A DNA stretch of 64,000 nucleotides, from assembly GCA_964016885.1 (NCBI GenBank), contig OZ024745.1, forward strand, positions 113,150,001 through 113,214,000. Reading direction: 5' to 3'. The stretch comes from Eledone cirrhosa (lineage: Eukaryota). Numbering within the stretch: position 1 is the stretch's first letter; each line of letters starts with the position of its first letter. Position numbers and translations under genes: made by a program. The notes beneath the pieces were generated by a model that was given only the letters and a program-made list of their open reading frames with translations, had not been told where the DNA came from and made no database searches. Below are positions 3,186 to 57,758 of the stretch, piece after piece.

Positions 3186-3188
<3 letters not shown>

Positions 3189-3650
3189 TATGTGTGGGAA
3201 ATGAAATTTCATTTCATTTTTTCCGTTTATCGTTTCCGGTGCCCCCGGCCGATTAACCCACTCGATATGCAAATTGGGCTACTCAGCCGTTATTATGCAT
3301 AAGGTAAGTATATACGTTCAACAATCTGGCAGGAAGGTATACGTTGCTGACGATAGCTAATAAGCTTGAAACTAGTACAGCGTTCCTTTGTCAGTGTTGT
3401 AAAAACGAGCAACGATGGTTGCTAGACACTACGGCTTAATACGGGTTGTTTGTTTACAAACACACCGAGCATTATAATAAATGTTCGGTGAATCCATACG
3501 TACATATATATATGTGTGCATGTATGTATATATATATACATACTACTGTACGTCTGTATACATATATGTATGTACGTATACATACTTATATTTAAGTAAC
3601 AGCCGTACTAAGAGTGGGAAATGAAATTTCGTTTCATTTTTTCCGTTTTT
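3186..3650 (+). mobile_element. Retrozyme-like element family B, 420-bp monomer plus terminal redundancy
   Basis: GTGGGAAATGAAATTTC...TTTTTCCGTTT occurs at 3194 and 3614 (period 420). Flanked by (TA)n, contains an HHR, no ORF. Confidence 0.8.
3341..3383 (+). ncRNA. Minimal type I hammerhead ribozyme
   Basis: ACGTTG-CTGACGA-TAGCT aata AGCTT-GAA-ACTAGT-A-CAGCGT: stems I and II, palindromic stem III, GUA site. Confidence 0.9.
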
Positions 3651-7753: not shown

Positions 7754-8117
7754 GTAATTGATCAAAAGAACATCCATTTTATTAATACTTATATTTTAAT
7801 ATTAATAACTCCAGAAATTTTTTTTTTTTGCCGTTGAGTGCTTCCAATCTACTGTAAAACTAATTCTTTGACATAATCATTGAATATTGTTTAACACTTT
7901 AACATATATATATATATATATATATTTGTGTGTATATGTGTGACTGAGTGTATGAGTGTATGTGCCTGAGACTCCAGAAATAGCCGTCGAAACGGCTTGA
8001 GCTCTGCCGTCGGGGTTAAACATTTTCCTATTACCCACTCTACTACCCTAAGTATTGAGTACGCTGGTGCGTTATGGTCCATCTGGTTCCTTACCACACC
8101 TCCTTCGTTATATATAT

Positions 8118-8187
<70 letters not shown>

Positions 8188-13423: not shown

Positions 13424-14132
13424 CGTGTGTGTGTGTGTGTGTTAATATATTAAATACGAAGCAAAAATACGAAGCATTGTGAGATATGTAATAAATAGCA
13501 GATAAGTTACAGAAAGCCGTGCAATGCGGTAGAAATATATAAAGGACAAGGGATGACAAATAAAACAAGACAAAGTAATGTCTTAGTCAGTAGATGTCAA
13601 CATGATATTTCGTTCGGATTTGTTTTGAACCTCTCTCGTTTCACACTTGAAAAGAGGGTTTGAGCCCTGAAATATCATATTTAAATAGTTACATAACTTT
13701 AAGGATGAATGGATATGACCATCCTCAAATCTCACCTGCAAGAACAAAACTATGCCATACAAGTTGAGAAATACCAACATACATACATGCATATATACAT
13801 ACATTCATACTTACATTCATACACACACACACACATATACATAAAAAAAAAATATATATATACACATATAGATGAATAAATAAATACATATTTATATATC
13901 TATCTCTATATATATATATGACGAAGGAAATGTGGTAAGGAACCAGGTGGACCATAACGCACCAAAGTACTCAATACTTAGGGTAGTAGAGTGGGTAATA
14001 GGAACAAGTAAGACCCCGACGGCTGAGATCAAGCCGTTTTGACGGCTAATTCTGGACTAGAATTAGCCGTCGAAACGGCTTGAGCTCAGCCGTCGGGGTT
14101 TTACTTGTTCCTATATATATATATATATATAT

Positions 14133-23083: not shown

Positions 23084-25521
23084 ATTATTAATTTAATACC
23101 TAATTGACTGGAATATATGTGTAAAAAATAATAATTATACTTTAAGCAATTAATATCTCAGTACTGTAATAGTTCTGTTGCATGAACATTAAAGTAAATT
23201 TTAAAATATTTAATTGATTTCATAAAAAAAAGTTATTAATTAAGGAATATGTAAAAAAGTGAATTTGAAAATGTAGTAACAGTAGAAAAATAGTTATAGA
23301 AAATAAGTAACATTTTATTTAAGAAAATACGAGTGCAGTAAGAAGGTTGCCGAATATTCTGCATTCGTACCCTCCAGATCAGACCTATATAAATCCACAG
23401 CCTTCTCAGAATCTCTGTGCACAGTTACGAAATGAAAATGTATTGGCGTGTTTATATTTACGGAGAGCCTTAGTTTTGAAATATGAATATATCCAATGAA
23501 TTCTTCAGAATCTCTTATTGTTGTGCAGAGGATACACACAGAAACACATACACACACATATACACATACACACACACACATACACACACATATACACATA
23601 CATACACACACACATACACACACACATTCGGACAGACAGACAGACAGACAAACACCCCCCCCCACACACACACATACACACATGCATATTTTGTATTGAA
23701 ATAAATAAAGTCTTGTATGAACAATTCTTGGTTTTCTTGCTTGTAACTCAACAGGTTTCTCCTTTTGAAGACGGAAGCGCTTCTTACCTTGCGCTGTTTC
23801 AGTGTTTTGGTAGGTTACTCTCAACACTCATGCATCTGTTGTGTATCACATATTTGCCTGATACTACATTAAGGACCTTTTCACTGTCTTCTACATAACA
23901 TGATGCTATGCACTCCCTTTGACTTTCCTTAATATTAAGCCCATTTTTGTTACCCGGTAACAGGTTAGACTTTAAAAATTCTAAATGACATCCACAAATA
24001 ATGAGATTTCTAGAAATATTCTCAGCTCAGAAGAGTTGTTGATTCTCTGTAATACATGATTACCCCTTACATTACAAAACATCTCCTATATCTAAGAAGG
24101 TCCCTGAAACACATAAATTGTTTTAAATTTAATTTGAAAATAGGCTCCCCATTTACTAGAACTAAATCCCGACGCAGTCAACTTTACCCTCGAGGTCGAT
24201 AAAGAAAGTACTAGTCTAGTACTGGAGTCGATTCCTCCTCTATATCGCTTTCTCGCTTCCATTCTATCATTCTTTCGATCCTTCACTGGAAGAAATCTGC
24301 TGTATACAGATTTGGAAAGGATTGGGCGCCAGCAAGTCTAAAAATGCCCTAGAAACGGCGCCACCATTATCCCCTCAGGAGTTACGAAACTATGCATGCA
24401 TTCATGCATTTACTGGAACAACATCCCCGTATATGTCCACTATGTTTCTTTTATATATACTGAAACAGTTCCATCTTGTTTGATCTAGCAGTTTATGTGT
24501 CATCTATGTTGAAGCTCATCGCTATTTTCCCATTCTTTTAATTCTTACTTTATCTTAATTTCTAAAGCGGGTTCTGAACATTCATACCATCCACCCTTCC
24601 CCTCCTGTAATCCTTTTCATTTTTACATGTTTCTACTTATATAAACGCGCAGATATTCCAAATCTCATAGACTTCACATCAACAGGCTGCCAAGGTTTGG
24701 CACAGCGCCTTCTTATCGGCTTAAATGATGGCAAAGGAATGATTTATTTTTATTGAAACGATGTAACGCTTATAGACCATTGGATCAATGGCAAAAGCTT
24801 GGTCAAGGCGTACTCAATAAAAATAAAAATATATACACTGGTGGTTGGTTAAAACGTAATTTTGTACGTGCTTCAAGCACACACACACACGCTATATATA
24901 TATGAGAGTATTGAAGTTTGCTTGAAGCATTGTGGAATAATAGGTAAATATCTTTAAGTCGTTTGGAAGCCTCGACAATGCAAATGGGTAAATCTCCGGG
25001 TAACAAGATCCGGTGGTGGAGAGAGAGATGTAAGTGGGTGTACGTTGAGATGCGTGGTGTGTATAAGATGTGTAGAGGAATGAAGTAAAGAGTTTAAAGG
25101 ATAAAATTAAAATAACAACACGAGAGAGAGTTACCTTGGGAGAGATTTAATTGTCCCTATATATTTCGGATTCACATCCATCAACAGGGGCTTTTTTCCG
25201 GGGTGGGGGAAAGGTTGTCTGTATATATATAATTGTTTCTACTTTAGGCACAAGGCCAGCAAATACCCAGTGTATTACTGGTACTTTATTTTATATATAT
25301 ATACATGTATATATAATATATAACGAAGGAAGTGTGGTAAGGAACCAGGTGGACCATAACGTACCAGAGTACTCGATACGTAGGCTAGTAGAGTGGGTAA
25401 CAGGAAAAGAATCAGGACCCCGACGGCTGAGCTCCGGCCGTTTCGACATCTAGATCTAGCTGTCGAAACGGCCGGAGGTCAGCCGTCGGGGTCCTGACTA
25501 TTTTCCTATATATATATATAT

Positions 25522-28500
25522 ATAAAAACAAATAACGAAACGAAATTAAATTTCGTTTGTAACTCACTTTTGTATGACTGACGCTTAAACAATTAAGTTA
25601 AAAATGTACATCCACATATGTATACTGAAATACTAGTATGCATATGAATACACACACGTGTACATATGTAGATGTACCGAGTTTTCACTGGTCACTTTAC
25701 TGTGAGTGTCCAGCTATTCTGTATGTAAACACACAGACAAACCGGTTCTTAGAGTCATACTGGTTTTTGAGGAAACACCTTTCCTCTATTCTCCAGAAAG
25801 CCAGACAAGGAATATTGGACTAGTTTCGATGTTGTTACATCTCATCAGCAATATTTACCTATCTTCCGGCATCTCTAGAGAATCGTGAAAGCACATATCG
25901 TTATATGCTTTTTATATGAAAATTAGTAGTGGGCAGACCAATTTGCATAGAGCGTGAGTACGTACCGGTTCAACGGAGACGATAAAAACAAATAACGAAA
26001 CGAAATTAAATTTCGTTTGTAACTCACTTTTGTATGACTGACGCTTAAACAATTAAGTTAAAAATGTACATCCACATATGTATACTGAAATACTAGTATG
26101 CATATGAATACACACACGTGTACATATGTAGATGTACCGAGTTTTCACTGGTCACTTTACTGTGAGTGTCCAGCTATTCTGTATGTAAACACACAGACAA
26201 ACCGGTTCTTAGAGTCATACTGGTTTTTGAGGAAACACCTTTCCTCTATTCTCCAGAAAGCCAGACAAGGAATATTGGACTAGTTTCGATGTTGTTACAT
26301 CTCATCAGCAATATTTACCTATCTTCCGGCATCTCTAGAGAATCGTGAAAGCACATATCGTTATATGCTTTTTATATGAAAATTAGTAGTGGGCAGACCA
26401 ATTTGCATAGAGCGTGAGTACGTACCGGTTCAACGGAGACGATAAAAACAAATAACGAAACGAAATTAAATTTCGTTTGTAACTCACTTTTGTATGACTG
26501 ACGCTTAAACAATTAAGTTAAAAATGTACATCCACATATGTATACTGAAATACTAGTATGCATATGAATACACACACGTGTACATATGTAGATGTACCGA
26601 GTTTTCACTGGTCACTTTACTGTGAGTGTCCAGCTATTCTGTATGTAAACACACAGACAAACCGGTTCTTAGAGTCATACTGGTTTTTGAGGAAACACCT
26701 TTCCTCTATTCTCCAGAAAGCCAGACAAGGAATATTGGACTAGTTTCGATGTTGTTACATCTCATCAGCAATATTTACCTATCTTCCGGCATCTCTAGAG
26801 AATCGTGAAAGCACATATCGTTATATGCTTTTTATATGAAAATTAGTAGTGGGCAGACCAATTTGCATAGAGCGTGAGTACGTACCGGTTCAACGGAGAC
26901 GATAAAAACAAATAACGAAACGAAATTAAATTTCGTTTGTAACTCACTTTTGTATGACTGACGCTTAAACAATTAAGTTAAAAATGTACATCCACATATG
27001 TATACTGAAATACTAGTATGCATATGAATACACACACGTGTACATATGTAGATGTACCGAGTTTTCACTGGTCACTTTACTGTGAGTGTCCAGCTATTCT
27101 GTATGTAAACACACAGACAAACCGGTTCTTAGAGTCATACTGGTTTTTGAGGAAACACCTTTCCTCTATTCTCCAGAAAGCCAGACAAGGAATATTGGAC
27201 TAGTTTCGATGTTGTTACATCTCATCAGCAATATTTACCTATCTTCCGGCATCTCTAGAGAATCGTGAAAGCACATATCGTTATATGCTTTTTATATGAA
27301 AATTAGTAGTGGGCAGACCAATTTGCATAGAGCGTGAGTACGTACCGGTTCAACGGAGACGATAAAAACAAATAACGAAACGAAATTAAATTTCGTTTGT
27401 AACTCACTTTTGTATGACTGACGCTTAAACAATTAAGTTAAAAATGTACATCCACATATGTATACTGAAATACTAGTATGCATATGAATACACACACGTG
27501 TACATATGTAGATGTACCGAGTTTTCACTGGTCACTTTACTGTGAGTGTCCAGCTATTCTGTATGTAAACACACAGACAAACCGGTTCTTAGAGTCATAC
27601 TGGTTTTTGAGGAAACACCTTTCCTCTATTCTCCAGAAAGCCAGACAAGGAATATTGGACTAGTTTCGATGTTGTTACATCTCATCAGCAATATTTACCT
27701 ATCTTCCGGCATCTCTAGAGAATCGTGAAAGCACATATCGTTATATGCTTTTTATATGAAAATTAGTAGTGGGCAGACCAATTTGCATAGAGCGTGAGTA
27801 CGTACCGGTTCAACGGAGACGATAAAAACAAATAACGAAACGAAATTAAATTTCGTTTGTAACTCACTTTTGTATGACTGACGCTTAAACAATTAAGTTA
27901 AAAATGTACATCCACATATGTATACTGAAATACTAGTATGCATATGAATACACACACGTGTACATATGTAGATGTACCGAGTTTTCACTGGTCACTTTAC
28001 TGTGAGTGTCCAGCTATTCTGTATGTAAACACACAGACAAACCGGTTCTTAGAGTCATACTGGTTTTTGAGGAAACACCTTTCCTCTATTCTCCAGAAAG
28101 CCAGACAAGGAATATTGGACTAGTTTCGATGTTGTTACATCTCATCAGCAATATTTACCTATCTTCCGGCATCTCTAGAGAATCGTGAAAGCACATATCG
28201 TTATATGCTTTTTATATGAAAATTAGTAGTGGGCAGACCAATTTGCATAGAGCGTGAGTACGTACCGGTTCAACGGAGACGATAAAAACAAATAACGAAA
28301 CGAAATTAAATTTCGTTTGTAACTCACTTTTGTATGACTGACGCTTAAACAATTAAGTTAAAAATGTACATCCACATATGTATACTGAAATACTAGTATG
28401 CATATGAATACACACACGTGTACATATGTAGATGTACCGAGTTTTCACTGGTCACTTTACTGTGAGTGTCCAGCTATTCTGTATGTAAACACACAGACAA

Positions 28501-29676
28501 ACCGGTTCTTAGAGTCATACTGGTTTTTGAGGAAACACCTTTCCTCTATTCTCCAGAAAGCCAGACAAGGAATATTGGACTAGTTTCGATGTTGTTACAT
28601 CTCATCAGCAATATTTACCTATCTTCCGGCATCTCTAGAGAATCGTGAAAGCACATATCGTTATATGCTTTTTATATGAAAATTAGTAGTGGGCAGACCA
28701 ATTTGCATAGAGCGTGAGTACGTACCGGTTCAACGGAGACGATAAAAACAAATAACGAAACGAAATTAAATTTCGTTTGTAACTCACTTTTGTATGACTG
28801 ACGCTTAAACAATTAAGTTAAAAATGTACATCCACATATGTATACTGAAATACTAGTATGCATATGAATACACACACGTGTACATATGTAGATGTACCGA
28901 GTTTTCACTGGTCACTTTACTGTGAGTGTCCAGCTATTCTGTATGTAAACACACAGACAAACCGGTTCTTAGAGTCATACTGGTTTTTGAGGAAACACCT
29001 TTCCTCTATTCTCCAGAAAGCCAGACAAGGAATATTGGACTAGTTTCGATGTTGTTACATCTCATCAGCAATATTTACCTATCTTCCGGCATCTCTAGAG
29101 AATCGTGAAAGCACATATCGTTATATGCTTTTTATATGAAAATTAGTAGTGGGCAGACCAATTTGCATAGAGCGTGAGTACGTACCGGTTCAACGGAGAC
29201 GATAAAAACAAATAACGAAACGAAATTAAATTTCGTTTGTAACTCACTTTTGTATGACTGACGCTTAAACAATTAAGTTAAAAATGTACATCCACATATG
29301 TATACTGAAATACTAGTATGCATATGAATACACACACGTGTACATATGTAGATGTACCGAGTTTTCACTGGTCACTTTACTGTGAGTGTCCAGCTATTCT
29401 GTATGTAAACACACAGACAAACCGGTTCTTAGAGTCATACTGGTTTTTGAGGAAACACCTTTCCTCTATTCTCCAGAAAGCCAGACAAGGAATATTGGAC
29501 TAGTTTCGATGTTGTTACATCTCATCAGCAATATTTACCTATCTTCCGGCATCTCTAGAGAATCGTGAAAGCACATATCGTTATATGCTTTTTATATGAA
29601 AATTAGTAGTGGGCAGACCAATTTGCATAGAGCGTGAGTACGTACCGGTTCAACGGAGACGATAAAAACAAATAAC
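25522..29676 (-). repeat. 460-bp HHR-containing tandem array (retrozyme-like family A), 9 full copies
   Basis: Exact 460-bp period, also visible in the ORF track. Copies look identical by eye. One HHR per unit on the minus strand. Confidence 0.97.
25811..25855 (-). ncRNA. Minimal type I hammerhead ribozyme, repeated every 460 bp up to 29491-29535
   Basis: AATATTG-CTGATGA-GATGT aaca ACATC-GAA-ACTAGT-C-CAATATT: perfect core, 7-bp stem I, 5-bp stem II, palindromic stem III, GUC site. Confidence 0.95.
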
Positions 29677-29677
29677 A

Positions 29678-30754
29678 AACCGGTTTGTCTGTGTGTTTAC
29701 ATACAGAATAGCTGGACACTCACAGTAAAGTGACCAGTGAAAACTCGGTACATCTACATATGTACACGTGTGTGTATTCATATGCATACTAGTATTTCAG
29801 TATACATATGTGGATGTACATTTTTAACTTAATTGTTTAAGCGTCAGTCATACAAAAGTGAGTTACAAACGAAATTTAATTTCGTTTCGTTATTTGTTTT
29901 TATCGTCTCCGTTGAACCGGTACGTACTCACGCTCTATGCAAATTGGTCTGCCCACTACTAATTTTCATATAAAAAGCATATAACGATATGTGCTTTCAC
30001 GATTCTCTAGAGATGCCGGAAGATAGGTAAATATTGCTGATGAGATGTAACAACATCGAAACTAGTCCAATATTCCTTGTCTGGCTTTCTGGAGAATAGA
30101 GGAAAGGTGTTTCCTCAAAAACCAGTATGACTCTAAGAACCGGTTTGTCTGTGTGTTTACATACAGAATAGCTGGACACTCACAGTAAAGTGACCAGTGA
30201 AAACTCGGTACATCTACATATGTACACGTGTGTGTATTCATATGCATACTAGTATTTCAGTATACATATGTGGATGTACATTTTTAACTTAATTGTTTAA
30301 GCGTCAGTCATACAAAAGTGAGTTACAAACGAAATTTAATTTCGTTTCGTTATTTGTTTTTATCGTCTCCGTTGAACCGGTACGTACTCACGCTCTATGC
30401 AAATTGGTCTGCCCACTACTAATTTTCATATAAAAAGCATATAACGATATGTGCTTTCACGATTCTCTAGAGATGCCGGAAGATAGGTAAATATTGCTGA
30501 TGAGATGTAACAACATCGAAACTAGTCCAATATTCCTTGTCTGGCTTTCTGGAGAATAGAGGAAAGGTGTTTCCTCAAAAACCAGTATGACTCTAAGAAC
30601 CGGTTTGTCTGTGTGTTTACATACAGAATAGCTGGACACTCACAGTAAAGTGACCAGTGAAAACTCGGTACATCTACATATGTACACGTGTGTGTATTCA
30701 TATGCATACTAGTATTTCAGTATACATATGTGGATGTACATTTTTAACTTAATT
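29678..30754 (+). repeat. Inverted arm of the 460-bp array, about 2.3 units
   Basis: Reverse complement of the left arm. Ends in (TA)n. Confidence 0.97.
30030..30074 (+). ncRNA. Minimal type I hammerhead ribozyme (second copy 30490-30534)
   Basis: Same motif as 25811-25855. Predicted cleavage after 30067. Confidence 0.95.
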
Positions 30755-31655: not shown

Positions 31656-32160
31656 TTACAGAGATAGTGCTCTTATCAATACGTGTGCAGTACCAGTCAA
31701 AACAATTTTTTGCACCTCGTGCAGAGAGGGTAAACCAGGAATCATTCGCAAATATTGTTCTGTTCCTTTCTTGTTCATTCCCAGTTCTCCCACAATCACT
31801 GGTATTTTAATGGCCTTGAGGTGCCACATTTTCTCAATTTCAATAAGCAGATCTTTATATTTTCGTAGCTTGTCAAATTCTTTTGCCGCGATATTGTGAC
31901 CACATGGGATGCTCATATCTATCAATAAATAGACCTTGTTATGTTGATCTTTTACAATGATGTCAGGTCTATTTGCTTTTATGGTCCTGTCAGTATGTAC
32001 AGGAAAGTCCCAGAGAATTGTTACTTTTTCTCCTTCAGTTACAGCCCCAGGGTGATGATTGTACCACTTGTCTTCAGCTTTGATTTTGTAATGCCGACAT
32101 ATTACCCAATGTAGATATTGGCCAACTCTCATATCTATATTTGTATTCTGGTGCTTTATT
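31656..32160 (-). pseudogene. 3' fragment of an R4-group RLE retrotransposon, second family
   Basis: ILWDFPVHTDRTIKANRPDIIV...LIDMSIP...KLRKYKDL (PD-D/ExK endonuclease). 5' side abuts (TAA)n. Confidence 0.85.
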
Positions 32161-32176
32161 ATTATTATTATTATTG

Positions 32177-32843: not shown

Positions 32844-32920
<77 letters not shown>

Positions 32921-32923
<3 letters not shown>

Positions 32924-33544
32924 GATTGGTGCTCTGAAATAGAGATGTATACATGAATGTATGCATTGTATATTTGGCAATATACAGTATGTTTAATTAA
33001 AATCATTTTGAAGACCTTACGCTATCATTTTAAAGTAGTGACTATGTCACTTACTTCTTTTCGGCGAAAGAAGCTAACAGTCTGTTCCATGCTGTTTGGC
33101 AATCATCAGAGCTACGTACTGCCCTCTTCCGCCGAAAACTATAGAAGCTGGATTCTTATAGAATTCCAGTAATACATCGCTATTTCAGAGCACCAATCCT
33201 AACATTTAATTTTTGCTGAACTGGCAATCGCTCTGTATAATCAGCTACTGATTATTACTGGAATTCTATAAGAATCCAGCTTCTATAATTTTCGGCGGAA
33301 GAGGGCAGTACGTAGCTCTGACGATTGCCAAACAGCATGAAACAGACTGTTAGCTTCTCTGTCTTCTTTCGCCGAAAAGAAGTGACATAGTCACTACTTT
33401 AAAATGATAGCGTAAGGTCTTCAAAATGATTTAAATTAAACATAGTGTATATTGCCAAATATACTATGCATACATTCATATATATATGAATGTATGTATA
33501 GTATATTTGGCAATATACACTAGGTTCAATTGGCAAATATACTA

Positions 33545-33578
<34 letters not shown>

Positions 33579-33640
33579 TGTCTGCATAGTATATTTAGCA
33601 CTATACACTATGTTTAATTAAAAACATTTTGAAGACCTAA
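32921..33640. mobile_element. Retrozyme-like family C fold-back insertion; HHRs 33072-33113 (minus, GGAA mutant) and 33314-33355 (plus)
   Basis: AGCT-CTGACGA-TTGC caaaca GCAT-GAA-ACAG a CTGT-T-AGCT. Arms are circular permutations of the unit seen at 39425. Confidence 0.8.
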
Positions 33641-33903: not shown

Positions 33904-33915
33904 TATATATATATA

Positions 33916-34822
33916 TAAACGGAAAAAATGAAACGAAATTTCATTTCTCATTCTTAGTACGGATGTTACTTAAAGTATGTATACGTACATACATATATTT
34001 ATACATACGTACAGTAGTATGATGTATATATATATATACATGCACACATATATATATGTACGTATGGATTCACGGAACATTTATTATAATGCTCGGTGTG
34101 TTTGTAAACAAACATCCCGAATTAAGCCGTACAGTGTCTAGCAACCATCGTTGCTCATTTGTTCAACACTGACAAGGGAACGCTGTACTAGTTTCAAGCT
34201 TATTAGCTATCGTCAGCAACGTATACCTTCCTTCCAGATGGTTAAACGTCTGAAAGTATATACTTTCCTTATGCATATTAACGGCTGAGCAGCCTAATTT
34301 GCATATCGAGTGAGTTAATCGGCCGGGGTACCGAAAACGATAAACGGAAAAAATGAAACGAAATTTCATTTCTCACTCTTAGTAGGGCTGTTACTTAAAT
34401 ATAAGTATGTATACATACATACATATATGTATACAGACGTACAGTAGTATGTATATATATATATATATACATACATGCACACATATATATATGTACGTAT
34501 GGATTCACCGAATATTTATTATAATGCTCGGCGTGTTTGTAAACAAACATCCCGAATTAAACTTCTCACTCTTAGTACGGCTGTTACTTAAATATAAGTA
34601 TGTATACGTACATACATATATGTGTTGAACAAATGAGCAACGATGGTTGCTAGACACTGTACGGCTTAATTCGGGATGTTTGTTTACAAACACGCCGAGC
34701 ATTATAATAAATGTTCGGTGAATCCATACGTACATATATATATATATGTGTGCATGTATATATATATATATACATACTACTGTACGTCTGTATACATATA
34801 TGTATGTACGTATACATACTTA

Positions 34823-34828
<6 letters not shown>
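33916..34828. mobile_element. Retrozyme-like family B: about 1.5 tandem units of 425 bp plus an inverted arm; HHR 34180-34222 on minus
   Basis: TAAACGGAAAAAATG at 33916 and 34341. Inverted arm 34623-34828. Flanked by (TA)n. HHR identical to 3341-3383. Confidence 0.85.
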
Positions 34829-39423: not shown

Positions 39424-39922
39424 ATATGAATATATATAGTGTATTTGGTAATACACTGTATGCTTAACTAAAAGCATTTTGAAGACCTTACGCTATTGTT
39501 TTAAAGTAGTGACTATGTCACTTCTTTTTTCAACAAACAAAGGGAGATAAGCTGACAGATCTCTGTTTCACACTGTTGGTATTCCTCAGAGCTTAGCACT
39601 CCCCTTGTTTGCTGAAAAATTATGAATGTTGGATTCTTATAGAATTCCAGTAATAATCAGCAACTGTGATTATACAGAGCGGTTGCGGATCCAGCAAAAA
39701 TTGAAAATTAGATTGGTGCTCTGAAATAGTGATGTATATATGAATGTATATATAGTGTATGTATATTGTTTGTTGAAAAAAGAAGTAAGTGACATAGTCA
39801 CTACTTTAAAACAATAGCGTAAGGTCTTCAAAATGCTTTTAATTAAGCATACAGTGTATTACCAAATAGACTATATATACATTCATATATACATCGCTAT
39901 TTCAGAGTACCAATTCTAATTT
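39424..39922. mobile_element. Retrozyme-like family C, 314-bp monomer plus overlap plus inverted arm
   Basis: ATGAAT.TATATAGTGTAT at 39426 and 39740. Inverted arm 39767-39922. Flanked by (TA)n. Confidence 0.8.
39549..39594 (-). ncRNA. Minimal type I hammerhead ribozyme
   Basis: AAGCT-CTGAGGA-ATAC caaca GTGT-GAA-ACAGA ga TCTGT-C-AGCTT. Confidence 0.9.
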
Positions 39923-40582: not shown

Positions 40583-40627
<45 letters not shown>

Positions 40628-40746
40628 AACGAGTAGTAGAATTCCATTTGTTAATATCGTATGTTTACTCCAAATATTTGTTGAGTGCTTTATATCAGTT
40701 ATAAAAATATTTTCTTGTTGTATCCCAACAATTTAAATAGAACTTT

Positions 40747-40846
<100 letters not shown>

Positions 40847-41018
40847 GAAGGAAGTGTGGTAGGGAACCAGGTGGACCATAACGCACCAGAGTACTCAATA
40901 CTTAGGGTAGTAGAGTGGGTAATAAGAAAATGTTTAACCCCGACGGCAGAGCTTAAGCCGATTACAAGAAATTTTGACCAATCCTTTTGACAACTATAAT
41001 CGTCCCATATAAGGAATT

Positions 41019-43952: not shown

Positions 43953-43957
<5 letters not shown>
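43746..43957 (+). mobile_element. Main SINE; its (ATT)n tail adjoins the Dong-like tandem
   Basis: Matches 22866-23083. Confidence 0.9.
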
Positions 43958-43992
<35 letters not shown>

Positions 43993-43998
43993 GTTATT

Positions 43999-44389
43999 CC
44001 TTGAATCTCAGTCATTGATGTTGGTTAACTGGAAAGTCCGTTGGAATGAATATCAAGCCACTACCTGCAGCCTCAGATATTCAGGACGTATCGGAGGGTT
44101 CTTGCTGTTCCAAGCAAGCATGCCTTTTGAAGCGTTCCAAAAAGCGTGAAGGGGCCGATTTTTTTTAACCATCCCTGGAAACTTTTGGAGATAGTCCCTA
44201 GTGCGCCTATGACAATCGGGATCACTTTGACTTCATGGCAGTTCCAAATCCTTTTCACCTCCCACTTTAGGTCCTGGTATCGGTTAATTTTCTCCCTCTC
44301 CTTCTCTTGCACTCTCGTGTCGAAAGGGCAGGCCACATCCACAATCAGACACGATCTTTTTTCTTTGTCCACAACCACCAGGTCAGGTC

Positions 44390-44390
<1 letters not shown>
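43999..44390 (-). mobile_element. R4/Dong-like 5'-truncated copy (short)
   Basis: RLE C-terminus plus 3' UTR, near identical to the full copy. (TAA)n on both sides. Confidence 0.93.
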
Positions 44391-44423
<33 letters not shown>

Positions 44424-44435
44424 GTTATTGTTATT

Positions 44436-45845
44436 CCTTGAATCTCAGTCATTGATGTTGGTTAACTGGAAAGTCCGTTGGATTGAATATCAAGCCACTA
44501 CCTGCAGCCTCAGATATTCAGGACGTATCGGAGGGTTCTTGCTGTTCCAAGCAAGCATGCCTTTTGAAGCGTTCCAAAAAGCGTGAAGGGGCCGATTTTC
44601 TTTAACCATCCCTGGAAACCTTTGGAGATAGTCCCCAGTGCGCCTATGACAATCGGGATCACTTTGACTTCATGGCAGTTCCAAATCCTTTTCACCTCCC
44701 ACTTTAGGTCCTGGTGTCGGTTAATTTTCTCCCTCTCCTTCTCTTGCACTCTCGTGTCGAACGGGCAGGCCACATCCACAATCAGGCACGATCTTTTTTC
44801 TTTGTCCACAACCACCAGGTCAGGTCTATTGTGTTCCAGTTTTTTGTCCGTCTGTATCCTAAAATCCCACAGCACCTTCACCTGACTGTTCTCCATCACC
44901 GCCTCTGGCCTATGCTCATACCATTTCTCAGAATGTGGTAGATTGTTTACTTTGCACAGGTGCCAGTGGATCACCCTGCCCATCACATCGTGTTTCCAGC
45001 CCTTATAGTGGGTCTGGGCTAGGTGTTTACACTCGGACACAATGTGAGCCACAGTCTCCTCTCTCTCTCCACAGATCCTGCACAGTGGGCTAGCCTCCTC
45101 CTTGTAGATATGGTGCTTCAACCACTTCGTTTTGAGGGCCTGCTCCTGCGCAGCCATTAGCATTCCTTCTGTAGCCTGTTTGAGGTCTCCTCTTCTCAAC
45201 CAGTTCCATGTCTGTGGATCTCTAAATTCAGTTTTCTCAAAGAAGGTACTATGAAGGGATTTTCCCTTAAGGCTGCTCTTCCTCCTTGATGTTATTTCCT
45301 CCTTGGATATCCCCTGGCCTACTGTCCCCTCCTTCAGTACAGTTCTGAGCATTGGCTCCTTACTATAGGTCACGTGTTTGTATAGGTTGTTTTTCTCCAT
45401 CTGAACACAGTCCTCTATGCTGATAAGACCTCTTCCACCCTCAGATCTCCTTAGGTAGAGTCTATCGACATCACTCCTCTTGTGGAACATGTTGTAGATA
45501 GTCAATAGCTTCCTAGTCTTCCTATCCATTTCTTTTTGTTCAGCAACATTCCATCTCAGAATTCCAGCACTGTACCTAATAATAGACACAGCTCGGGAAT
45601 TTACTGCGCTTATGGCATTTCTGCTGTTCAGATGTGACTTCAATACGCTCCTTACTCTCCGAATGTGTTCAGTTCTTAACAATTCCTTCATTTTTTTGTT
45701 CTTTATGCCATCAGCCTCAGGAACGCCCAAATACTTGTATCCTTCCTCAGAGTCAATTTCCTTTATCATCTCACCTGTTGGTATCTGGATCCCGTTACTT
45801 CTGCTCAACCTACCCCTCCTCATCACAATGACTCCACATTTACCA
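44436..45845 (-). mobile_element. R4/Dong-like 5'-truncated copy (1.4 kb)
   Basis: Open frame from the end of RT through CCHC and RLE. (TAA)n on both sides. Confidence 0.93.
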
Positions 45846-55641: not shown

Positions 55642-56960
55642 CCCCCTCACTATATCTATCAATATCTATCTCTATCAATCTTCCTACTCTTTGTATCTAC
55701 TACACGGAACTCTCTTTCAATCCTCCTCTCTATATCAAATAGCCCCAAACACTCCCCCTCACTATATCTACTACACGGAACTCTCTTTCAATCCTCCTCT
55801 CTATATCAAATAGCCCCAAACACTCCCCCTCACTATATCTACTACACGGAACTCTCTTTCAATCCTCCTCTCTATATCAAATAGCCCCAAACACTCCCCC
55901 TCACTATATCTACTACACCGAACTCTCTTTCAATCCTCCTCTCTATATCAAATAGCCCCAAACACTCCTCCTCACTATATCTACTACACGGAACTCTCTT
56001 TCAATCCTCCTCTCTATATCAAATAGCCCCAAACACTCCTCCTCACTATATCTACTACACCGAACTCTCTTTCAATCCTCCTCTCTATATCAAATAGCCC
56101 CAAACACTCCTCCTCACTATATCTACTACACGGAACTCTCTTTCAATCCTCCTCTCTATATCAAATAGCCCCAAACACTCCTCCTCACTATATCTACTAC
56201 ACCGAACTCTCTTTCAATCCTCCTCTCTATATCAAATAGCCCCAAACACTCCTCCTCACTATATCTACTACACGGAACACTCTTCTAATAAAACTCTCTA
56301 TATCAATTAAGCCCAAACTCTCCCCGTCTCTATATCTTCTACATGGAACACTCTGTCGATTACCCCTCTCCATATCAATTAAACCAAAACCCTCCCCCTC
56401 TCTATATCTAATATTCAACACACTCTCCAACCTCTCCAACCTCTCCACTCTATATAAATTACGACCAAACTATCTCGCTCTCTATATCTATCATGCAACA
56501 CTCTCTCTTATTCTGCTTCACTCTATCCATCACTCTATATCAACCATACAACATTCTCTCCCAATACTCCTCCCTATATCTATTAGCACCAAAGTCTCCC
56601 TCTCTCTATATCAACCATACAACATTCTCTCCCAATACCCCTCCCTATATCTATTAGCACCAAAGTCTCCCTCTCTCTATATCAACCATACAACATTCTC
56701 TCCCAATACCCCTCCCTATATCTATTAGCACCAAAGTCTCCCTCTCTCTATATCAACCATACAACATTCTCTCCCAATACCCTTCCCTATATCTATTAGG
56801 ACCAAACTCTCCCCCTCTCTATATAAACCATATAACATTATTACCCAATACCCTTGCCTATATCTATTAGCATCAAAATATCACCCTCTCTATATCTACC
56901 ATACAACACTCTTTCTCGTACAATCTCACTATATCCACCACTACAAATCTCTATCACTCG
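55642..56960. repeat. 71-bp minisatellite with two variant blocks
   Basis: AGCCCCAAAC at 55741, 55812 and onward (~8 units). CAACCATAC at 56541, 56612 and onward (~5 units). Confidence 0.92.
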
Positions 56961-57758
56961 CTATATCGATAAATAAGAAGTTGAAAGTACAGTTTAGCTG
57001 TCTACGTGCATTGTTCATAGAAATATTGTTGAGCCCCTTCTTTTCATACTCCTCTGTTTTGGCCTATTGGAATAAATGGGAAAGAGAAAGTCACAGGTTA
57101 AGTTGGCAGAAGGTTCCAGTGTCATAGCAATAAGGCGTAGGCTACTTACCTGAAAAGTTCATTCGCACTCTCTCCACTAAGTTACTCTTTCTCTCTATCC
57201 CTCTCCGTGCAGTCCCTTGCGAATTTATCGCGTAGGCCTGGTGTAAATTTGCACCCGATCCATCTACCCGATGCACATGTCCGCTTTGTACGGTTTTTAG
57301 AGGAAGGAGTGACCAGCAGTACGTTGTTCGGTATTATTACGAAAAGGTGTAGCAGAGAATGCCGCGTGAACTAACAGCTCGCGAGGAAACTGCTTACCTC
57401 GAAGATTCATTCGCCATCGTTCTTGTCAACGCTCCGTTTACTTGGTATTTGTTGGTTTGCAGTTAAATGAATGGCGCACAAATGTTGAATGTTTATTGGC
57501 AAGAAGTTTTTGAAAGTAATAAAAGACGGGTTAAAGCGACCTACAATGTATCTGTGTATATATATATATATATATACACAGATACATATATATATGTGTG
57601 TATGTGTGTATGTATGCATATATATATGTGTGTGTGTATGTATGCATATATATATGTGTGTGTATGTATGCATATATATATGTGTGTATGTGTGTATGTA
57701 TGTATATATATATATGTGTGTGTGTATACATATATTTTTATGTGTATATTTATATATA

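Follow-up and report, generated by a model that had tools for sequence, protein, structure and literature searches.

The window analysed here is a 64,000-nt stretch of the Eledone cirrhosa genome (assembly GCA_964016885.1, contig OZ024745.1; G000:C5:113150001-113214000 within the 3.0-Gb assembly). It contains three families of short non-coding repeats, A, B and C, each with a hammerhead ribozyme motif and each inserted in (TA)n. The insertions end at two fixed sites within the repeat unit, away from the predicted ribozyme cut, and a two-armed insertion usually has one end at each site. This is the footprint of Penelope-like elements (PLEs). At the strongest that the evidence allows, A, B and C were probably inserted by a borrowed PLE protein that primed both ends of a cut in a TA repeat on one, probably circular, RNA.

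Insertions and repeat units

Positions +n are given in nt downstream of the predicted hammerhead cut, counted on the ribozyme strand. S2 denotes the downstream start site, which forms the tailed end of an insertion, and S1 the upstream start site, which forms the tail-less end. The insertions in the window are as follows.

25522..29682, minus strand: family A left arm, ~9 head-to-tail 460-nt units; 3' end 25522 = S2 (+296), tailed
29678..30754, plus strand: family A right arm, 2.3 inverted units, 5'-to-5' with the left arm; 3' end 30754 = S1 (+227), tail-less
25522..25590, minus strand: family A tail, 69 nt, S1 to S2, at one insertion end only; predicted hairpin AAACGAAAT..ATTTCGTTT
25795..25866, minus strand: predicted type I hammerhead, one per A unit, 11 copies; predicted GUC cut between 25818 and 25817
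25508..25521: (TA)n target separating family D from family A
3188..3650, plus strand: family B single-arm copy, 420-nt unit + ~40 nt; S2 end 3650, (TA)n at both ends
33915..34828: family B, two arms; minus-arm end 33915 = S2 (+273), plus-arm end 34828 = S1 (+217)
32920..33479: family C, two arms; minus-arm end 32920 = S2 (+168), plus-arm end 33479 = S1 (+133)
39426..39921: family C, two arms; minus-arm end ~39426 = S1 (+133), plus-arm end 39919-39921 = S2
25321..25509: family D short two-armed insertion; tailed end ~25321, tail-less end ~25508, tail ~80 nt

The single-arm B copy has its hammerhead motif at ~3340-3385 with a predicted cut after 3377, and its end at 3650 reads CCGTTTTT, with one extra T. 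The hammerhead motif of the C insertion 32920..33479 lies at ~33311-33358; the S1 end of this insertion was read by eye, as the automated end map had fused it with a neighbouring fragment.

The units stand head to tail and measure 460/465 nt in A, 420 nt in B and 314 nt in C, with a GC content of 0.36-0.38. Each includes one type I hammerhead motif, recognised by pattern in its core and stems, and cuts are predicted at GUC in A, GUA in B and GUU in C. The A motif (CUGAUGA..GAAAC UA GUC) has a palindromic 2-bp stem III, and hammerheads with such a short stem III are described as working in dimers in the available text of PMC4209133. The Rfam model Hammerhead_HH9 matches A at 38.9 bits (E 2.5e-6), under the gathering score of 52. 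B is ~70% identical to A in the 3' part, and C has its own hammerhead motif. The A fold is strongly self-paired (z -8.3), and the longest ATG frame in A, on the strand opposite the ribozyme, encodes 61 aa. The units of A, B and C include no open reading frame (ORF) for a reverse transcriptase (RT) or a GIY-YIG endonuclease, as an autonomous PLE would need, and no terminal direct repeats resembling long terminal repeats (LTRs) were seen in their arm maps. Judged from sequence, A, B and C fit non-coding hammerhead-motif repeats of the metazoan non-LTR retrozyme type. Rfam microRNA matches in the window scored under gathering and were set aside as TA/CA-repeat artefacts.

Insertion ends

The outer 3' ends of the main insertion were mapped at 32 A, 31 B and 31 C loci, with ends cut by the locus edge (1 A, 3 B) omitted. 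Among 53 A ends, 29 lie at S2 (+296; two called +299), 22 at S1 (+224 to +234) and 2 elsewhere. The 43 B ends fall at +273 to +275 (23) and +209 to +217 (18), with 2 elsewhere, and the 46 C ends at +160 to +172 (19) and +130 to +141 (19), with 8 elsewhere. Two narrow intervals per family thus hold 51/53, 41/43 and 38/46 of the ends, respectively; against a uniform distribution, the binomial p values are 3e-61, 1e-46 and 6e-32 for intervals drawn post hoc. The end is directly followed by (TA)n in 48/53 A, 38/43 B and 30/46 C cases, and lies within 15 nt of the predicted cut in 0/53, 0/43 and 1/46, respectively. In A, the S1 end is more ragged than the S2 end.

These samples consist of best matches; the predicted cut lay inside the queries for B and C, and the first A query started at S2. 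Because the mapped ends could carry query bias, junctions were also counted by pattern over the whole assembly, independently of any query and for family A only. This gave 2002 exact junctions at S2 (+296) and 610 at S1 (+224 to +232) on the forward strand, from which ~1200 in total is estimated as twice the forward count; the reverse-strand count of 1710 was not used, being inflated by several matches per locus. The corresponding pattern for the predicted cut (cut site + 8 A/T) had a single match in the assembly, an internal diverged unit and not an end.

Public contigs from one sample, possibly the assembly source, contain TA-tailed loose A ends at 25982, 26046 and 26051. A 495-base contig of run X2, over 25560-26018 of the window, closes the A monomer on itself and leaves family D uncovered; the sequencing type of the run is unrecorded, and the contig is uninformative on expression.

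The initial annotation had proposed that these insertions stop at one defined internal site and not at the ribozyme cut. Each of the ends that it named is correct to 1-2 bases and is followed by (TA)n. Read on the hammerhead strand, family A stops at 25522, 296 nt beyond the predicted GUC cut; B ends at 33915-33917 and at 3650, 273 nt beyond the predicted GUA cut, and A and B are homologous at this site; the C arms end in CCAATYCTAA at 32920 (given as 32921) and 39919, ~168 nt beyond the predicted GUU cut. The displacement from the cut likewise held across the assembly for A. The idea of a single site did not, since every family has a second, upstream end (A 30754, B 34828, C 33479/39426) on arms that had been overlooked. 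The junction histogram suggested as a check accordingly shows sharp A peaks off the cut site, two and not one. A defined RT origin away from the cut is supported and has a precedent in PLE biochemistry in vitro (PMC11167929), but with two origins in place of one.

Pairing of the two ends

Two-armed insertions of A, B and C consist of inverted, 5'-truncated copies joined head-to-head, with the tail at one end only. Within mapped loci, S1 was paired with S2 in 19/21 A, 12/14 B and 8/15 C pairs. A further sample was taken from the chromosome-1 A junctions among the matches listed (100 S2, 59 S1). In this sample, all 25 outward-facing pairs no more than 5 kb apart were S1+S2, as were 27 of the 28 no more than 10 kb apart; ~47% would be expected under independent choice (p ~1e-8, hand estimate). 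The tailed end may be on the left or on the right. The insertions in the window follow the same rule, with one S1 and one S2 end each (A 25522/30754, B 33915/34828, C 32920/33479 and 39919/39426, D 25321-25509). It is very likely that these ends were formed by PLE-type twin priming at two fixed sites.

Five 5' ends of A arms cluster at +69 to +73, at or beside the palindrome AACCGGTT, and three at +337/338; the joints at the centre of A insertions often hold short templated inserts.

An earlier reading of PLE insertions (PMC3846280, PMC8557442) invokes one RT start only, the tail-less end being formed when the first cDNA folds back or primes itself and an endonuclease then resolves the intermediate. 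Some arm junctions do lie at palindromes, such as that of L038, which folds back at +141, and the five 5' ends near AACCGGTT; the greater raggedness of S1 would also agree with this route. However, the 5' ends of the arms at two-armed loci are mostly non-mirrored, either arm may exceed the other in length (9 vs 6 of 15 by hand count), sometimes by several units, and the available text of PMC11167929 describes both sites as start sites of a PLE protein in vitro. Formation of the tail-less end by fold-back is therefore very improbable.

Microhomology and predicted structure at the start sites

Element and TA target usually share 3 nt at the S2 junctions of A and B. At S1 the shared stretch is mostly 1-2 nt in A and 5 nt in B, and in C it measures 0-4 nt; the full ranges are 0-3 nt in A and 1-5 nt in B. 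Among the matches listed for S1 of A (61 loci), ~21 read TTG|TATA and none TTG|ATAT by hand count, a phase bias compatible with one or more A-U pairs or with a nick of fixed phase. The longest TA runs in the B units, 12 nt at +150 and 10 nt at +127, form the 3' end in 0/43 cases, and hence pairing tunes the start without selecting the site. Thus, the TA microhomology with the target proposed initially is real, but it is minimal and does not choose the site.

A reading in which TA microhomology sets the ends by itself, through microsatellite-mediated deletion or assembly collapse and with no dedicated signal, could point to the coincidence of ends with T, TA or TAT in the unit and to the 5' ends of single-arm B copies, which often join at internal TA runs. 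Against it stand the unused internal runs of B, the strict S1/S2 pairing and short-read contigs that show identical ends, and this reading is scarcely credible.

The start position is probably set by something other than TA pairing, most plausibly structure. A long hairpin is predicted before S1 in A and B. The hairpin in the tail, preceding S2, is kept across 8 A and B sequences with one compensatory change, a single event and weak as evidence; this hairpin, located between the two starts, is a candidate RT recruitment signal.

Penelope-like elements in the same genome

According to the available portions of PMC11167929, to which statements on PAc below also refer, the purified Penelope-like protein PAc of Anolis acts on AT-rich DNA, where it cuts the two strands and extends each of them. 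It starts at two internal sites of its RNA, and the spacing of the two corresponds to the tail.

In the genome examined here, the GIY-YIG matches are C-terminal in RT ORFs that include a CxxxxCxxC linker. By domain order alone, this would be the Neptune/Nematis arrangement (PMC8557442). A, B and C match the ORF-bearing PLEs of this genome both in target, (TA)n, and in footprint. The autonomous L174 family, examined at 30 pseudo-LTR loci, has 14 ends with the tail, 13 without it and 3 internal copies; its sites are at ~+126 and ~+174, and all 8 resolvable end pairs are mixed (hand counts). Both end types likewise occur in the ORF-bearing L171 family.

The only likeness between C and the L174 family is hammerhead stem II (TTGC..GCAT). 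A resemblance of S2 of B to S1 of one PLE was rejected as a T-rich likeness too weak to use. An ORF-bearing Neptune-type family (L171, L172, L176, L177, L182) has a variant of the hammerhead core that reads UUGAAAA instead of CUGANGA.

The template

The form of the template was approached through variants shared between units. For A, 27 loci with at least 2 complete units, of 39 examined, were compared with the commonest unit as reference, and variants mostly occurred in every unit of a locus or in just one. In the window, C90T, a 5-nt deletion, G369T and A412T are present in 9/9 complete units of the A insertion, and the right arm carries the private haplotype of the left; no second locus with this haplotype was found among the best-scored matches. 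Complete units are present in both arms at 14 A loci; fixed variants are shared across the arms at 10 of these, and at none is a variant fixed in one arm only. Arrays of 12-17 near-identical units exist, and the longest pure monomer arrays have ~18.

At L237 (G000:C21:27571471-27574470), the ribozyme strand carries five A>G changes in a 21-nt stretch, and these are present in 8/8 passes, seven passes in the S1 arm and one in the S2 arm. This pattern was found nowhere else in the assembly with up to 1 mismatch allowed; array L247 has one of these sites fixed without the other four. ADAR prefers double-stranded RNA. The simplest reading of the repeated cluster is an adenosine-to-inosine (A-to-I) edited monomer copied repeatedly by both polymerases, and therefore a circle. 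The initial annotation had expected a circular template on the strength of the internal starts. Such a template is supported by the one-haplotype arrays and the repeated A>G cluster, but not by the internal starts, which alone do not indicate a circle because the same was shown for a PLE on linear RNA (PMC11167929). A single circular template is likely.

The same PLE twin priming on a linear, uncleaved read-through transcript, with homogeneous arms derived from homogeneous parents or from later DNA-level expansion, is a less probable alternative, and on balance an unlikely one. PAc starts internally on linear RNA, and its insertion is not changed by ribozyme mutants (PMC11167929); some arrays show periodic partial variants and repeating unit subtypes, and the first unit of L250 is unlike its others. 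These points are set against the L237 haplotype, which has no parent in the assembly and is yet found in both arms, against the window A haplotype, which lacks a second locus among the best-scored matches, and against the long near-identical arrays.

Several side observations concern variation within arrays. A deleted or rearranged unit returns at intervals in one arm of L044 and of L069/L229, which suggests a dimer-size template or local duplication. G344 of the 465-nt unit varies in scattered single units of the young arrays L033, L226 and L042, and G344A is fixed in the older subfamilies L254-L256. Template mixing, an RT error hot spot and sequencing error are alternative explanations of the scattered G344 variation.

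Proposed insertion mechanism

By analogy with PLE biochemistry (PMC11167929), a GIY-YIG nuclease would cut both strands of the TA repeat, and both 3'-OH ends would be extended. The insertion ends would then be RT start sites, with the exact start base set by 1-3 A-U pairs. The template would be one RNA molecule, probably a circular monomer, around which each RT would roll for a variable number of turns. The two cDNA ends would finally be joined at short microhomologies. In the most specific form of this model, each two-armed insertion would represent a single integration: a dimeric Penelope enzyme would prime the two ends of the TA break at two fixed sites on one circular retrozyme RNA, both polymerases would roll around that RNA, and A-to-I edits made on it would be frozen in all units of both arms. 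The chances of this version are about even.

A number of observations weigh against borrowed PLE machinery acting on a circle. The start site of PAc is stated to be 'not homologous' to the target, its starts were shown in vitro with uncleaved linear RNA as template, and ribozyme mutants left insertion unaltered (PMC11167929). No pseudo-LTR homologous to A, B or C is present at 50 GIY-YIG loci (150 of 10596 candidates scored). The pairing rule has exceptions, namely one S2/S2 pair of A, 6.4 kb apart, and, among the 15 C pairs, two S2/S2 and five with an off-site end; off-site ends account for 8/46 in C.

Further points of this kind concern the template. Private changes show no excess of A>G over T>C (7 vs 11 in A, 19 vs 25 in B, 26 vs 22 in C), so that the editing argument rests on one locus, L237. 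Among array-fixed changes, the 7:1 ratio of A>G to T>C (p 0.037) is driven by L237 and includes a probably ancestral G. The B array L250 has A>G in three units and not in the 3'-most unit, the older B arrays L227 and L231 hold repeating unit subtypes, and the A arrays L041, L044 and L237 have variants in two spaced units. Given these repeating B subtypes and spaced A variants, DNA-level unit duplication may occur.

Other repeats in the window

Family D is abundant, very short and two-armed, lies in (TA)n and has the PLE footprint with an unusually long tail (~80 nt). It occurs also at 2463-2649, 7986-8128, 13907-14115 and 40821-40953. No hammerhead was found in the present part of the D insertion 25321..25509. 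At 33486-33640, beside a C insertion, there are more short C fragments arranged tail-to-tail over TA runs. The minus strand of a short segment at 40606-40750, which lies between TA runs, ends in GGAATTC..CCTAT and resembles L174 PLEs at their tail-less end. Three regions (~31800-32170, 43957-44830, 49481 onward) hold fragments with (ATT)n at the end, which by eye resemble the 3' end of a restriction-like-endonuclease non-LTR retrotransposon. Arrays of a 71-nt minisatellite at 55694-56967 have no relation to the ribozyme repeats.

Comparison with known systems

In L1 twin priming, two primers at one target break give rise to an inverted 5' segment from one RNA. The A, B and C insertions differ in that the second start is fixed, lying 35-85 nt upstream of the first, in that both arms extend toward the 5' end over several units, and in having no poly(A).

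The closest footprint match is to endonuclease-positive PLEs, i.e. PAc/Poseidon of Anolis (PMC11167929), Adineta Penelope (PMC3846280) and Neptune/Naiad/Hydra (PMC8557442). An internal start away from the ribozyme cut and a one-sided tail are already known for PLEs. Unlike PLEs, A, B and C lack an RT/endonuclease ORF and form pure monomer arrays. Their tails are ~65-70 nt in A and ~55-60 nt in B, compared with 30-40 nt in PLEs, whereas that of C (~35 nt) fits; the overlap of the junctions with the TA target by 0-5 nt is another difference from PLE reports. In the available portions of the PLE papers, strict pairing with one tail per insertion is uncounted, and the two starts are not tied to opposite strands of one event.

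A, B and C resemble metazoan non-LTR retrozymes, as these are described in the accessible parts of PMC7229834 (Cervera and de la Pena 2020) and 10.64898/2026.07.22.740005, in being short, self-paired, non-coding tandem monomers with one type I hammerhead each and a GC content of 36-38%, below the 50% limit of the class. B and C fall inside the retrozyme size range of 150-450 bp, and A is slightly above it. Circular RNA and cleavage have been shown for published metazoan retrozymes; in A, B and C both are predicted. Mobilisation of retrozymes by PLEs via circular RNA was proposed in PMC7229834, a text in which the word 'inverted' occurs 0 times. In the portions available, the retrozyme papers base the PLE link on co-occurrence and pseudo-LTR phylogeny and not on insertion footprints. 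Li, Clavereau and Pollet 2026 (10.64898/2026.07.22.740005) prefer unequal crossover as the source of local amplification and give phylogenetic support for PLEs with the mechanism left open.

Among titles and abstract openings of the literature searched, no report was found of a PLE footprint on retrozyme arrays, of strict end pairing or of an editing record, and no match came up for editing marks in retrozyme or retroelement copies within genomes or for octopus, Penelope and hammerhead combined; PMC12602865 has nothing on insertion structure. Which enzyme spreads animal retrozymes, and whether on a circular template, was the subject of proposals in 2014-2020 and is still called unresolved in the available text of the 2026 preprint. 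If true, the model of rolling on a single circle would explain together the one-end tail of PLEs, the inverted arm and the origin of the tandem arrays of retrozymes. The ~2000 young A junctions provide base-exact predicted start sites and a strand rule of one start per target end, both of which can be used in the existing in vitro assay for PLEs.

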